Of a stretch of DNA of 64,000 bases, positions 6,049 to 10,813 are shown piece after piece. The stretch's first letter is position 1. Every line of letters starts with the position of its first letter. Source of the stretch: Escherichia coli (GTDB lineage Bacteria > Pseudomonadota > Gammaproteobacteria > Enterobacterales > Enterobacteriaceae); assembly GCF_029227855.1 (NCBI RefSeq), contig NZ_CP074356.1; one strand, written 5' to 3'. The position numbers were made by a program, and so were the translations under genes. A model generated the notes under the pieces. It saw nothing but the letters and a program-made list of their open reading frames with translations, was not told the origin of the DNA and did not search any database.

Positions 6049-7401
6049 ATGAATAGTAACGGACTGACACAAACTATCGTTACCGGCAGTGACCCGCGCG
6101 GGCTGCCGGAATTCAGCGCCATCCGCGAGGAAATAAACAAAGCCAGCCATCCGTCACAGCCTGAGCTGAACTGGAAACTGGTGGAGTCGCTGGCGCTGGC
6201 GATTTTTAAAGCCAACGGTGTGGATTTACACACCGCCACCTACTATACGCTTGCCCGGACACGGACACAGGGACTGGCGGGATTCTGCGAAGGTGCGGAA
6301 CTGCTGGCGGCAATGGTAAGCCACGACTGGGATAAATTCTGGCCGCAGGGCGGTCCGGCGCGTACTGAAATGCTGGACTGGTTTAACTCCCGAACCGGCA
6401 ATATTCTGCGTCAGCAAATCCCCTTTGCGGAACCCGATCTGCCACTGATCTACCGCACAGAGCGGGCATTGCAGCTTATCTGCGACAAGCTTCAGCAGGT
6501 GGAGCTGAAGCGCGTTCCGCGCGTGGAGAATCTGCTCTATTTTATGCAGAACACGCGTAAGCGGCTTGAACCCCAGCCGAAGAGTAACGTTGAAAACGCC
6601 GTACAGACCACGGTTAGAACACTGATTTATGCCCCGGAAACAACGGCTTCCTCCACGCCAGAAGCGGTAGTGCCTCCCCTGCCCGACCTGCCTGAGATGA
6701 AAGTAGAAGTGCGCAGTCTGTCAGAGAATCCCCCACAGGCCAGTGTGATGAAGCAAGGCAGTACGGTAAGAGGGTTTATCACGGGGATCGCCTGTTCAGT
6801 GGCTGTCGCCTCAGCATTGTGGTGGTGGCAGGTCTATCCGGTGCAACAGCAACTGTTACAGGTTAACGACACCGCGCAGGGCGCAGCAACGGTGTGGATG
6901 GCCTCACCTGAACTAGAAAACTATGAGCGCAGGCTGCAACAGCTTCTTGGCGTCTCCCCGGTACAACCGCTGGAAACCGGGATGCAGATGATGCGTGTTG
7001 CCGACAGTCGCTGGCCGGAAAGCCTGCAGCAGCAGCAGGCCTCGACACATTGGAATGAAGCACTCAAAACCCGCGCACAGAGTAGCCCGCAGTTGCGTGG
7101 CTGGTTGCAGACCCGTCAGGACTTACATGCTTTTGCAGATCTCGTGATGCGGCGCGAGAAAGAGGGACTAACCCTTTCCTATATCAAAAATGTCATCTGG
7201 CAGGCGGAGCGGGGACTGGGGCAGGAAACACCCGTTGAGTCTCTGTTGACGCAGTACCAGGATACCCGTGCGCAGAAGCAGAATATAGATGCGCTGGAAA
7301 AACAAATTAATGAGCGACTCGAAGGCGTGTTAATCCGCTGGCTGCTGCTGAAGAATAACGTCATGCCAGAGGCGGCAACCGGGACCACGGCCGAAAAATA
7401 A
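6049..7401 (+). CDS. TssA-like / VasL-like membrane-anchored T6SS accessory protein, 450 aa
   Basis: ATG at 6049 after GAGGAGG (6038-6044); central hydrophobic segment ITGIACSVAVASALWWW; position after tssM matches VasL; family call by synteny, not verified. Confidence 0.5.
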   Translation: MNSNGLTQTIVTGSDPRGLPEFSAIREEINKASHPSQPELNWKLVESLALAIFKANGVDLHTATYYTLARTRTQGLAGFCEGAELLAAMVSHDWDKFWPQGGPARTEMLDWFNSRTGNILRQQIPFAEPDLPLIYRTERALQLICDKLQQVELKRVPRVENLLYFMQNTRKRLEPQPKSNVENAVQTTVRTLIYAPETTASSTPEAVVPPLPDLPEMKVEVRSLSENPPQASVMKQGSTVRGFITGIACSVAVASALWWWQVYPVQQQLLQVNDTAQGAATVWMASPELENYERRLQQLLGVSPVQPLETGMQMMRVADSRWPESLQQQQASTHWNEALKTRAQSSPQLRGWLQTRQDLHAFADLVMRREKEGLTLSYIKNVIWQAERGLGQETPVESLLTQYQDTRAQKQNIDALEKQINERLEGVLIRWLLLKNNVMPEAATGTTAEK

Positions 7402-7424
7402 TTATTTAATTAAAGGAGATTATC

Positions 7425-7907
7425 ATGGCAAATATGAGTTATTTATCTTTGAGTGGAGAGACACAAGGGCTGATTTCAGCAGGTTGCTCAACGCTTGATT
7501 CTGTCGGAAACAAAGCACAGCCAGAACATAAAGATCAGATCATGGTTTATGCGTTAATGCATTCCATCTCAAGAAGTCAAAATGTCAATCATCATGAATT
7601 AATTATCACCAAACCGGTTGATAAATCCTCACCATTGCTGGCAAAAGCACTTAGTGACAATGAAAAAATGGTAACATGTGAATTTATACTCTACCGAACC
7701 AGTAAAGCGGGTATTTACCAGCCTTATTATAAAATAAACCTGTCAAAAGCCCGAATATCAAGTATTGATTTTGTCACACCGCATGCTGTCCTGGAAAAAG
7801 AACTGGAGCCACAGGAGAGAATTGCCTTTATTTATGAAGATATTTCCTGGGAGCATACGTTAGCCGGTACGAATGCAATGAGTAAATGGCAGGATCGTGT
7901 ACAGTAA
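7425..7907 (+). CDS. hcp: Hcp (TssD) T6SS tube protein, 160 aa
   Basis: AGGAG RBS upstream; 160 aa; Hcp-like segments KSSPLLAKAL and ERIAFIYEDISWEH; no C-terminal extension; lower GC than upstream T6SS genes. Confidence 0.8.
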   Translation: MANMSYLSLSGETQGLISAGCSTLDSVGNKAQPEHKDQIMVYALMHSISRSQNVNHHELIITKPVDKSSPLLAKALSDNEKMVTCEFILYRTSKAGIYQPYYKINLSKARISSIDFVTPHAVLEKELEPQERIAFIYEDISWEHTLAGTNAMSKWQDRVQ

Positions 7908-7950
7908 TTTACTGTAATAACATAATAAATTACTATTGCGGAGAGATATA

Positions 7951-8865
7951 ATGGCTGGTTTAAGGAATAATAACAACACACAGAATGCACAGTGGGCTGA
8001 TTATGTGGGTGACATTCTTCGGGGGGCTCAACCGATAAACCAGCTAGTACCTCAGCACCCTTATCTTAACGACGTCCCACTCATTGATGAATTAAGGCGT
8101 CAGAACACTCATCATGTTATTCTCTTGACACTTGATGTTGCAAAAAAAATACTCAACTCAATAACATCATTTGATTACATTCATTTTATCACTACACATC
8201 CTTCAGGTATAAAAGATACACTCGCTTGGTTAGTTAACGCGGGTAAATTAATGACTGAGTTTGATGGAAATGGGAAAATTATATTTAACTTTAATACCTT
8301 AAAGTATACAAAAGCAAGTTACTTTGAAATACTTGGAGAGAAATATATAAAAATTACAACATCCAGCCCCTGGCTTTTAGAAAAGCTCGGTAAATATATT
8401 TTCTCTTCACGAGCGCCTCAAGTTCTGGAACTCGCTATTGGCTGGCGAGGAGCTTTATCTGAATCAATAAAAGGAGTTAAGTTCTGTATCTGGTTTTCAG
8501 TAGCCTGGAGAACCATAGAATTTATTATGAGTTCAGAGCGAGATCTGGTTAATTTTCTTGGTGATTTTTCAATGGATGTGGCCAAAGCAGTGATTGCAGG
8601 CGGTGTTGCAACTGCTATTGGAAGCCTGGCTTCTTTTGCCTGTCTTAGTTTTGGCCTTCCAGTAATTCTTGTAGGAGGAGCAATTTTACTTACAGGGATA
8701 GTGTGTACAGTTGTTTTAAATGAAATCGATGCTCAATACCATTTATCAGAAAAATTAAAAGATGCAATTAGAGATGGACTAAAACGGCAACAGGAACTTG
8801 ATAAATGGAAAAGGGAAAACATGACTCCATTTATGTATGTTCTTAACACTCCTCCCGTGATATGA
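7951..8865 (+). CDS. hypothetical protein, 304 aa, C-terminal Gly/Ala-rich hydrophobic helical hairpin; candidate T6SS cargo effector
   Basis: ATG 7951 with GGAGAG 5 nt upstream; ~220-aa polar N-terminal region, then two hydrophobic helices (AVIAGGVATAIGSLASFA and GLPVILVGGAILLTGIVCTVVL) and a charged tail; AT-rich; 43 nt downstream of hcp. Confidence 0.55.
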   Translation: MAGLRNNNNTQNAQWADYVGDILRGAQPINQLVPQHPYLNDVPLIDELRRQNTHHVILLTLDVAKKILNSITSFDYIHFITTHPSGIKDTLAWLVNAGKLMTEFDGNGKIIFNFNTLKYTKASYFEILGEKYIKITTSSPWLLEKLGKYIFSSRAPQVLELAIGWRGALSESIKGVKFCIWFSVAWRTIEFIMSSERDLVNFLGDFSMDVAKAVIAGGVATAIGSLASFACLSFGLPVILVGGAILLTGIVCTVVLNEIDAQYHLSEKLKDAIRDGLKRQQELDKWKRENMTPFMYVLNTPPVI

Positions 8866-8874
8866 GGATTAACT

Positions 8875-9129
8875 ATGCGTTTACATGTTAAATTGAAAGA
8901 GTTTTTTTCGATGTTTTTTATAGCCATATTATTTTTCCCTGCATTCAATGCTTCTTTATTTTTTACCGGAATTAAACCTCTATATTCAATAATAAAAGGC
9001 TCCACGGAAATATTTTATGATTGGAGAATGTTGATTCTATGCTTCGGTTTCATATCGTTTTCCTTGTTAAATATTCATGTAATTTTACTAACAATAATAA
9101 AATCATTCTTAATAAAAAAACAAAGGTAA
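8875..9129 (+). CDS. small membrane protein, 84 aa, two predicted TM helices; candidate immunity protein
   Basis: ATG 8875 with GAGGA 6 nt upstream, 9 nt after previous stop; very hydrophobic product; ends just after an A7 run at 9114-9120. Confidence 0.4.
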   Translation: MRLHVKLKEFFSMFFIAILFFPAFNASLFFTGIKPLYSIIKGSTEIFYDWRMLILCFGFISFSLLNIHVILLTIIKSFLIKKQR

Positions 9130-9341
9130 TCAATTTCGCCACAGACATAACAATACAGCTAACTCTTATATTTTTACTAATAGCTATCGTAATAGCACCT
9201 TTAATAGCTCCTTTTGTCACAGGATATGTCAATGCTAATTATCACCCCTGCGGTAATAACACGGGGATTTTCCCAGGAGCAATCTATATTAAAAATGGCA
9301 TAAAATGTAATAATGAACATATTTCTCGCAAGGAAGATTAA
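9021..9341 (+). CDS. hypothetical small membrane ORF (frame 0); possibly the 3' part of a frameshifted gene with 8875..9129
   Basis: Overlaps previous ORF in another frame; one hydrophobic helix LTLIFLLIAIVIAPLIAPFV; no convincing own RBS; frames would join with one extra A at 9114-9120. Confidence 0.2.
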   Translation: MENVDSMLRFHIVFLVKYSCNFTNNNKIILNKKTKVINFATDITIQLTLIFLLIAIVIAPLIAPFVTGYVNANYHPCGNNTGIFPGAIYIKNGIKCNNEHISRKED

Positions 9342-9454
9342 GCAGTTAAATAATTAAATATTCTAAAACAAACAGTTTTTAACGCCGGATTCCATGTCCT
9401 TTCTTGCACTGTCTTTGTCAGGAACAATTTCTTATGCAAAGAATTTTGTATTAT

Positions 9455-9477
9455 TGCCGCCAGAAATTCCTGGCGGC
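9455..9477. terminator. hairpin between convergent cargo ORFs and yafT
   Basis: GCCGCCAG-aaattc-CTGGCGGC inverted repeat flanked by AT-rich sequence. Confidence 0.4.
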
Positions 9478-9489
9478 AGATATAATTTA

Positions 9490-10275
9490 TTATTGATAGC
9501 GGTTAACCAAATCTTTTACCATCGCTTTATAGGTCTTTTGCTTAAGTTGTATGATTTGCTGCTCTGTCATATCAGTCGTACTGGCTTCATTCTTGCCGGG
9601 AAATGGTGGAAGCACTTTATATTCATAATTCACCGGCGACCAGGCAGCCCACTCACCTGTAGCTACATCCACCAGCGTGAATCGCACCAGATAGCGCAGT
9701 GAGATTGTGTTAGTCAGTTTTTCATTTTTATAATCGGACCATACTGTTGATTTCAGTGCAGTGTCATATTTTCCTGTCTGCAACGTATCCTGGTAAACAA
9801 TAATCGCTTTCTGATGGCCTTTTGCCGCCACAAAACGTAATGCCTGCATCCAGTTCATATTTTCAGCACTGGCAACATCCTCGTTCTCATTTTTATCTTT
9901 GTTTTTGTTACAAGTCAGAGGCTTTTGTCTGTCCGGGATACCAGAGAATGTGGAAACAGTATAATATTTTCGCATCTCCTCCTGCATAATGGTTTCCGGT
10001 GCGCGGTTGCCGGATTGAACAAGTATTACAGGTGAATTAAGGGGAACGCGGAACTCATCTCCATCAAGCGCAGCTTGAATATCCTCCTCGGATACGGCTA
10101 GTGTGGTTTCATTACCAAATAAGTCTTTGTCTGTTAGTTGCTGCGGAGCGTTTTTATTAAAATTACTTTGTGTGGTTTGAGCTTTTTTCTTCTTTTCATC
10201 AATAAGAGATTCAGAGACACATCCTGCAAGCAGCGACAATAATACATATATACAACAAACCTTTTTTGAATTCAA
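9490..10275 (-). CDS. yafT: YafT lipoprotein, 261 aa
   Basis: Signal peptide with lipobox LLAGC; Lys/Asn-rich; AT-rich; sits beside aspV as in K-12. Confidence 0.85.
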
Positions 10276-10546
10276 AATCGGACACTCCCTCGTCTGTCAT
10301 AATCATGGTAATGTTTAGCTAACGATTTTTAATTATATACTCCACTTGAATCAGAACAAACAAAAATAATATTAAATATTAATTCATTAAATCAATAGAA
10401 TAATAAAAATTATAACATGGAAATATATTTAAATTGAATGATTCGCTGGTATTATTAAATATTAATGAATGGTCAATCATATATAATTACCACATTTACA
10501 GCATAACAAAATAATTGAACGAAGAAATTGTGGGGTTTAAATACAA

Positions 10547-10582
10547 AAAAAACCGCAAAATTAAAAATTTTGCGGTTCTCTG
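10547..10582 (-). terminator. rho-independent terminator downstream of aspV
   Basis: On minus strand: stem AACCGCAAAAT/ATTTTGCGGTT followed by T8. Confidence 0.7.
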
Positions 10583-10604
10583 AACTCATTTTCATGAGTG
10601 AATT

Positions 10605-10681
10605 TGGCGGAACGGACGGGACTCGAACCCGCGACCCCCTGCGTGACAGGCAGGTATTCTAACCGACTGAACTACCGCTCC
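10605..10681 (-). tRNA. aspV: tRNA-Asp(GUC)
   Basis: 77-nt reverse complement of canonical E. coli tRNA-Asp including CCA; identical to the copy at 19539-19615. Confidence 0.95.
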
Positions 10682-10813
10682 GCGTTGTGTTCCGTTGGGA
10701 ACGAGGCGAATATTACGGATTGCCTCACCCTTCGTCAACGGTTTTTCTCATCTTTTGAATCGTTTGCTGCAAAAATCGCCCAAGTCGCTATTTTTAGCGC
10801 CTTTTACAGGTAT

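Follow-up and report, generated by a model that had tools for sequence, protein, structure and literature searches.

The toxin and immunity proteins closest to the locus described here were defined as two families, Tme and Tmi, by Fridman et al. 2020 (Nat Commun, PMC7046647). Tme proteins are type VI membrane-disrupting toxins whose domain is defined by a DxxK motif, accompanied by a transmembrane (TM) helix and a flanking aspartate; membership was set by a position-specific scoring matrix built from residues 161–310 of Tme1 (RPS-BLAST, E ≤ 1e-8 over at least 80 amino acids) (PMC7046647). The domain is C-terminal, while the N-termini are variable and in some members carry delivery domains of a type VI secretion system (T6SS), namely PAAR, VgrG, MIX or ImpA. 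A T6SS-associated gene immediately upstream of tme on the same strand is a further feature of the family, and directly downstream is the gene for Tmi, a DUF1240 or DUF1240-like protein with three to six TM helices (PMC7046647). Two members from Vibrio, Tme1 and Tme2, have been shown to be secreted in a T6SS-dependent manner and to be toxic specifically in the periplasm, where they cause depolarization and propidium iodide uptake, and the cognate Tmi rescues cells specifically (PMC7046647). Here we analyze a 64,000-nucleotide (nt) stretch of the Escherichia coli chromosome (contig NZ_CP074356.1; hereafter, the window), in which an open reading frame (ORF) of 304 amino acids lies between an hcp gene and the small gene ykfM, at the distal end of a T6SS island adjoining the tRNA-Asp gene aspV. 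We find that this hcp–tme–tmi module is a catalogued member of the family characterized in 2020 and not a new kind of system.

Evidence for this assignment comes from the published family table. The window protein is identical to WP_113519504.1, an accession that does not appear among the entries in the portion of the Supplementary Data consulted here (PMC7046647). A variant that differs at a single residue, WP_000908071.1 (303/304 identical), is listed in the consulted portion of Supplementary Data 5 as a Tme protein, with the domain at residues 122–277, an E-value of 1.3e-37 and at least 50 occurrences. Its neighbors in the same table are an Hcp, WP_000002621.1, at 43 nt and a 155-residue protein with three TM helices, WP_001236629.1, at 9 nt (PMC7046647), and these are the very Hcp and YkfM accessions that are annotated in strains matching the window. 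A second E. coli protein, WP_000908051.1 of strain SE11, is 96% identical to the window protein and is likewise listed as Tme (E = 1.16e-35; PMC7046647 Supplementary Data 5, portion consulted). More generally, that portion of the table describes E. coli proteins of 304 residues with a Tme domain at 122–277, an Hcp 43 nt upstream and a three-TM protein of 155–159 residues 9 nt downstream, and the name 'Escherichia coli' occurs in it at least 1254 times (PMC7046647).

The preliminary description of this locus, made from the DNA sequence, had proposed a membrane-depolarizing T6SS effector with a small multi-TM immunity protein, carried as separate cargo. The agreement with the Tme/Tmi family, in which a one-residue variant is listed with identical neighbors in the consulted part of the table (PMC7046647), supports this proposal. 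The effector cannot be called uncharacterized, as it had been: the definition of its family dates from 2020, and experiments have been carried out on two members from Vibrio (PMC7046647). We regard the 304-residue protein as the E. coli representative of this published family and place the probability of the explanation as a whole, comprising a Tme effector, delivery through Hcp and immunity conferred by a Tmi protein, at roughly 0.85.

Direct family searches were of little help in reaching this result. Scans of the 304-residue protein against Pfam, NCBIfam, PADLOC and PHROGs returned nothing significant, and neither did sequence searches of the PDB. The genomic context with DUF1240 was the key lead, and it is this context that led to the published Tme family (PMC7046647).

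The ORF begins with an ATG codon and has GGAGAG upstream of its start; 43 nt separate it from the hcp stop (7907). The ATG of ykfM (8875) follows 9 nt after the ORF and is preceded by GAGGA. Both intergenic gaps and the Shine-Dalgarno-like sequence before each gene were correctly described at the outset. Hydropathy analysis of the protein yields one continuous hydrophobic block at approximately residues 213–261, with a polar N-terminal part before it and a charged tail behind it. This layout confirms the polar N-terminus, two Gly/Ala-rich helices and charged tail that had been reported, and both of the helices quoted at that time fall within the block. Its hydrophobic helices are Gly/Ala/Ser-rich and 'zipper'-like at residues 216–228. 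In the AlphaFold2 model a beta-hairpin at residues 121–136 is followed by long helices spanning 165–290, with a pLDDT of 72–93 over this part, and Phobius placed a TM helix at 234–256 according to the consulted portion of the published table (PMC7046647 Supplementary Data 5).

A family profile built from ten close homologues and searched against 1.84 billion representatives (E ≤ 0.001) returned 702 cluster representatives. What these proteins have in common is a stretch at approximately residues 120–280, while N-termini and lengths vary; among 15 longer relatives, six carry a PAAR domain, which is N-terminal in some relatives, and one a DUF4280 domain. In an alignment of 73 sequences, K212 is preserved in 72, D209 in 65 and D260 in all 73, and these residues flank the hydrophobic helices. 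The window protein contains the DxxK motif, the hydrophobic block at 213–261 and the flanking D260. Close homologues are few and restricted to the Enterobacterales, with identities of 63% in Salmonella and 39% in Rahnella. Since the ORF is widespread in E. coli genomes and conserved in Salmonella and Rahnella, it is not a chance ORF.

A helical protein that contains a hydrophobic hairpin of helices could also be a true homologue of colicin-like or ClyA-like pore formers, and a weak phmmer match to the hydrophobic head of AhlB (E = 0.89) points in the same direction. Yet Pfam revealed neither a colicin nor any other toxin domain, the family profile gave nothing below E = 0.2 against the PDB, and Foldseek produced no match at E ≤ 0.001, so that we consider such homology very improbable. 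The AhlB match was rejected as insignificant; whether the PDB was queried with the protein alone or with the profile of 73 sequences, matches stayed at chance level. The resemblance to pore-forming colicins drawn in the preliminary description thus finds no support in sequence or in predicted fold.

The N-terminal part of the Tme protein follows a different pattern of conservation from the rest. Residues 1 to approximately 45 are 78–84% identical in three paralogues (P0016, P0018 and P0019), whereas the remainder of the protein is only 22–34% identical to them. As the conservation suggests, this segment is a candidate for a role in loading or delivery, carried on a polymorphic toxin. When the first 68 residues were used as a query, the search returned only fragments of the 304-residue protein and no other toxin domain.

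We then considered the loci of relatives. A DUF1240-type gene is located directly downstream in all five contexts examined (5/5), which include the Salmonella, Rahnella, P0020 and P0021 loci. Among these contexts are a 329-residue paralogue that occupies the equivalent slot downstream of hcp in another T6SS island and a 298-residue relative with no hcp nearby. The order in Salmonella is T6SS, hcp, a gene for 307 residues and a DUF1240 gene. In Rahnella bruchi, the gene for a 304-residue protein and its DUF1240 gene adjoin an orphan hcp, and T6SS structural genes are not nearby. In the window, hcp lies 43 nt upstream of tme on the same strand. Salmonella and the P0020 loci also have hcp upstream in this orientation; in Rahnella it is adjacent but convergent. 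Both hcp and a DUF1240-type partner therefore recur beside homologues of the 304-residue protein in Salmonella and Rahnella, the kind of linkage by which the preliminary description had proposed to judge the pair.

These loci also bear on the idea that the 304-residue protein serves the T6SS as an accessory or structural component anchored in the membrane, with YkfM as a partner membrane protein. Such a role would fit its place at the end of what looks like an operon, after tssM, vasL and hcp, and the library scans detected no enzymatic domain in it. It is difficult to reconcile, however, with a pair that is found without nearby T6SS structural genes in the Rahnella and P0021 loci, with a domain that is fused to PAAR in relatives, and with divergent alleles that fill the identical slot, each with its own downstream partner. 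In addition, tme1 of Vibrio is dispensable for T6SS activity (PMC7046647). We find this role scarcely credible.

The Hcp proteins of the island may point to a specific pairing with the effector. The island encodes two of them, and the window Hcp (7425–7907) is only 29% identical to the vgrG-linked Hcp (locus L002, 18634–19152), whereas it is 57% identical to the orphan Hcp that stands beside the Tme/Tmi pair in Rahnella. These identities suggest a dedicated, effector-specific Hcp that travels with the pair, and the hcp gene of the module is likely the dedicated carrier of the effector.

The Salmonella locus contains a second set of genes. In Salmonella enterica DALPDZ010000034.1 (L003, 11586–13010), the first tme–DUF1240 pair is followed by a 169-residue ORF and then by a second DUF1240 gene. 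The ORF is truncated and similar to the N-terminal part of another Tme paralogue, distinct from the first; together the two genes look like a toxin remnant and an orphan immunity gene.

The gene downstream of the effector had been described as one or two small hydrophobic ORFs. We find instead that the ORFs at 8875–9129 and 9021–9341 together make up a single gene, ykfM, which a 1-nt deletion has divided in two. Strain JNEC-KY178, which is otherwise identical over 3.4 kb, has a run of eight A residues (A8) where the window has seven (A7). The intact gene encodes 155 amino acids with three hydrophobic segments and, with its 9-nt gap, has the TM number and position of a Tmi protein; Phobius counted three TM helices for the 155-residue downstream protein in the consulted portion of the published table (PMC7046647). 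Scans of YkfM against NCBIfam, PADLOC and PHROGs gave nothing significant. The Salmonella protein in the equivalent position, which itself has a Pfam DUF1240 match, shares 50% identity with YkfM (E = 7e-48). Through a conserved C-terminal Y-H-x-C...Y-x-K...C region, YkfM also aligns with two other DUF1240 proteins (E = 6e-8 and 5e-5). YkfM is predicted to be a DUF1240-like, tmi-like immunity protein. The inverse assignment, which the preliminary description had kept in reserve and in which the 304-residue protein would be the immunity partner, was rejected because in Vibrio toxicity resides in Tme, and Tmi relieves it (PMC7046647).

The same two genes can be recognized in K-12. The K-12 pseudogene yafU corresponds to the final 112 codons of the toxin gene, residues 193–304 (96% identity), and in MG1655 (locus L008, 2758–3585) an intact ykfM, with approximately 95% DNA identity to the window ykfM, is found beside it. 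K-12 has neither the T6SS nor hcp, and of the toxin gene it is missing the N-terminal two thirds. Together, yafU and ykfM in K-12 are the remnant of an hcp–tme–tmi module after loss of the T6SS island. That K-12 keeps ykfM while the toxin has been lost is the pattern expected of an orphan immunity gene protecting against toxin-producing relatives. Across complete genomes, ykfM is present in 3016 of 5426, compared with approximately 2566 for the whole module. Previously, K-12 ykfM was known only from a stress-lethality transposon screen and not as an immunity gene. Two long-unexplained K-12 genes would thereby acquire a meaning, yafU as a toxin remnant and ykfM as a retained orphan immunity gene.

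The region surrounding the module (7400–10800) has matches in 5425 of the 5426 complete E. coli genomes, and at least 80% of it is covered at one place in 2566 of them. The unknown cargo of the common aspV T6SS island is thus a catalogued Tme/Tmi pair in about half of complete E. coli genomes. The T6SS structural genes of the island follow the V. cholerae vas order, tssJ–tssK–tssL–tssH–vasI–tssA–tssM–vasL; downstream of vasL come hcp, the 304-residue ORF and ykfM, and beyond these the convergent lipoprotein gene yafT, aspV and dnaQ. Coordinates are collected in Table 1. The G+C fraction (GC) is 0.377 for the 304-residue ORF and 0.296 for ykfM, compared with 0.56–0.57 for tssM and vasL. The preliminary description was right that the module is far more AT-rich than these structural genes, but it placed the beginning of the AT-rich cargo downstream of hcp; since the GC of hcp is itself 0.391, the module starts with hcp.

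Table 1. Features of the hcp–tme–tmi module and its flank (positions in the window; residue numbers refer to the 304-residue protein).
Feature	Position	Strand	Basis
hcp (160 aa), opens the AT-rich module	7425–7907	+	TIGR03344, E = 1e-60; GC 0.391
tme-like gene, 304-aa predicted membrane-disrupting T6SS effector	7951–8865	+	Identical to WP_113519504.1
N-terminal ~45 residues, candidate loading/delivery segment	7951–8085	+	Conserved among otherwise divergent paralogues
Tme domain, residues 122–277	8314–8781	+	Boundaries from published table (PMC7046647)
DxxK motif, D209-V-A-K212	8575–8586	+	73-sequence family alignment
Gly/Ala-rich hydrophobic helical hairpin, residues 213–256	8587–8718	+	Kyte-Doolittle, 19-residue window means up to 2.7
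ykfM, tmi-like immunity gene, frameshifted in the window	8875–9341	+	Comparison with A8 allele; PGAP flag in strain 746
A7 homopolymer, frameshift site, zero frame A_AAA_AAA	9114–9120	+	Alignment to strain JNEC-KY178
Terminator-like GC-rich hairpin between convergent ykfM and yafT	9454–9479	.	Consensus scan only
yafT, lipoprotein gene	9490–10275	-	Pfam PF25851 in relatives
tRNA-Asp (aspV), T6SS island boundary	10605–10681	-	ARAGORN and annotation of matching genomes

Two observations concern the far side of the module. The hairpin between ykfM and yafT has 10 pairs, 7 of them G-C, and could be a bidirectional terminator, as a consensus match suggests. The yafT gene is also AT-rich (GC 0.41). 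In E. coli, in Salmonella and at the P0020 loci it separates the module from aspV; it is missing at the Rahnella orphan locus.

The frameshift in ykfM is not peculiar to this assembly. In 36 genomes, all of them complete and coming from numerous hosts and laboratories, the segment is 100% identical to the A7 allele of the window. One of the strains with this allele is strain 746, in which the PGAP annotation marks ykfM as 'frameshifted' while the toxin is intact and all T6SS core genes are annotated as intact. At the run, the zero-frame codons read ATA AAA AAA CAA AGG TAA and create an in-frame A_AAA_AAA heptamer. Reading of the codons indicates that a −1 slip, or one A added in transcription, yields ...LIKKTKVI..., exactly the intact YkfM. 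A search for RNA structure downstream of the A-run that might stimulate frameshifting found none (z = 0.04). The toxin allele N69 is common to the window and an A8 strain, and the other A7 strains compared carry S69. Because run length does not track N69/S69, it may have changed more than once, or an assembly may contain a homopolymer error. It is a long shot that immunity is set low by recoding, through a −1 slip or A addition by RNA polymerase, or toggled by homopolymer slippage. If this were true, YkfM would be a phase-variable T6SS immunity gene.

A minor but genuine possibility is that what this strain carries is a relic of the module, decaying or silent, with an immunity pseudogene, silenced AT-rich genes and an undeployed toxin; its family identity would stand regardless. 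The frameshift in ykfM and the decay seen at this locus in K-12 are consistent with such a relic, as is the GC of 0.30–0.39, a range in which silenced foreign DNA of E. coli typically lies. Against this, the toxin ORF is intact and does not differ from its counterpart in a strain whose ykfM is intact, and in strain 746 every T6SS core gene is annotated as intact despite the A7 allele. Furthermore, the frameshift amounts to a single homopolymer step; it can revert, and the run that it leaves is a slippery heptamer in frame.

Several points weigh against the Tme/Tmi explanation. The assignment to Tme was made via the published listing, the motif and the context. Ten clusters sampled among the profile matches came from a Chlamydiales metagenome-assembled genome (MAG), an Acidobacteria MAG, Desulfamplus, Moritella and metagenomes, and did not include V. 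parahaemolyticus Tme1. YkfM gives no direct match to Pfam DUF1240 (PF06836) even at E ≤ 10, and its link to DUF1240 is therefore transitive. A toxin gene that is intact next to an immunity gene that is frameshifted, as in the window, is odd for an active toxin–immunity pair. A protein of 34 kDa is large for cargo in the Hcp lumen, which makes loading into Hcp uncertain. Finally, searches of the literature on yafU, ykfM, aspV T6SS effectors and Tme/Tmi turned up no experimental work on the E. coli pair.

On balance we favor the Tme/Tmi explanation, which suggests the following course of events. The hcp–tme–tmi genes would constitute a cargo module of three genes, placed at the distal end of the aspV T6SS island, with the 304-residue protein serving, by analogy, as a Tme-family antibacterial effector. 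This effector would probably be loaded via the Hcp encoded just upstream and fired into neighboring Gram-negative cells. In the periplasm of the recipient, the C-terminal Tme domain, with its DxxK motif and Gly/Ala-rich hairpin, is predicted to insert into the inner membrane. If it acts as its relatives do, the inserted domain would collapse the membrane potential and make the membrane leaky with no cell lysis. YkfM would be the cognate Tmi in the inner membrane of the producer, with three TM helices and a Cys-containing periplasmic tail, and would neutralize toxin arriving from sister cells. By the same analogy, we infer that the E. coli protein acts like Vibrio Tme1 and Tme2.

Other toxins that act on membranes offer a more distant comparison. 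For VasX of V. cholerae and the pore-forming colicins, too, the target is the inner membrane, approached from the periplasm, and in published assays VasX produced a depolarization and propidium iodide phenotype equal to that of Tme1 and Tme2 (PMC7046647). No relationship in sequence or in predicted fold was detected between the 304-residue protein and either VasX or the pore-forming colicins. Small Hcp-dependent effectors that target membranes, such as the depolarizing Tse4 of Pseudomonas aeruginosa and Ssp6 of Serratia, also possess 'zipper'-like helices rich in Gly, Ala and Ser. With these the E. coli protein would share the association with Hcp, but it is larger and has a long polar N-terminal part; the comparison is one of general properties and not of homology.

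The closest counterparts are the Tme1/Tmi1 and Tme2/Tmi2 pairs of V. parahaemolyticus. Unlike their toxin genes, that of E. coli is linked with hcp, within a V. cholerae-like cluster that has the vas gene order, and YkfM is not recognized directly by the Pfam DUF1240 model. Tme1 has a RIX domain at its N-terminus, and the N-terminus of the E. coli protein is specific to the Enterobacterales. The likeness extends through the rest of the architecture, with a C-terminal Tme domain, the DxxK motif, a TM helix and a flanking aspartate behind a variable N-terminus, and through the order of the genes, with a T6SS gene directly upstream and a multi-TM DUF1240 or DUF1240-like gene directly downstream. 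The family table, in the portion consulted, lists E. coli proteins that are 96–99.7% identical to the window protein (PMC7046647).

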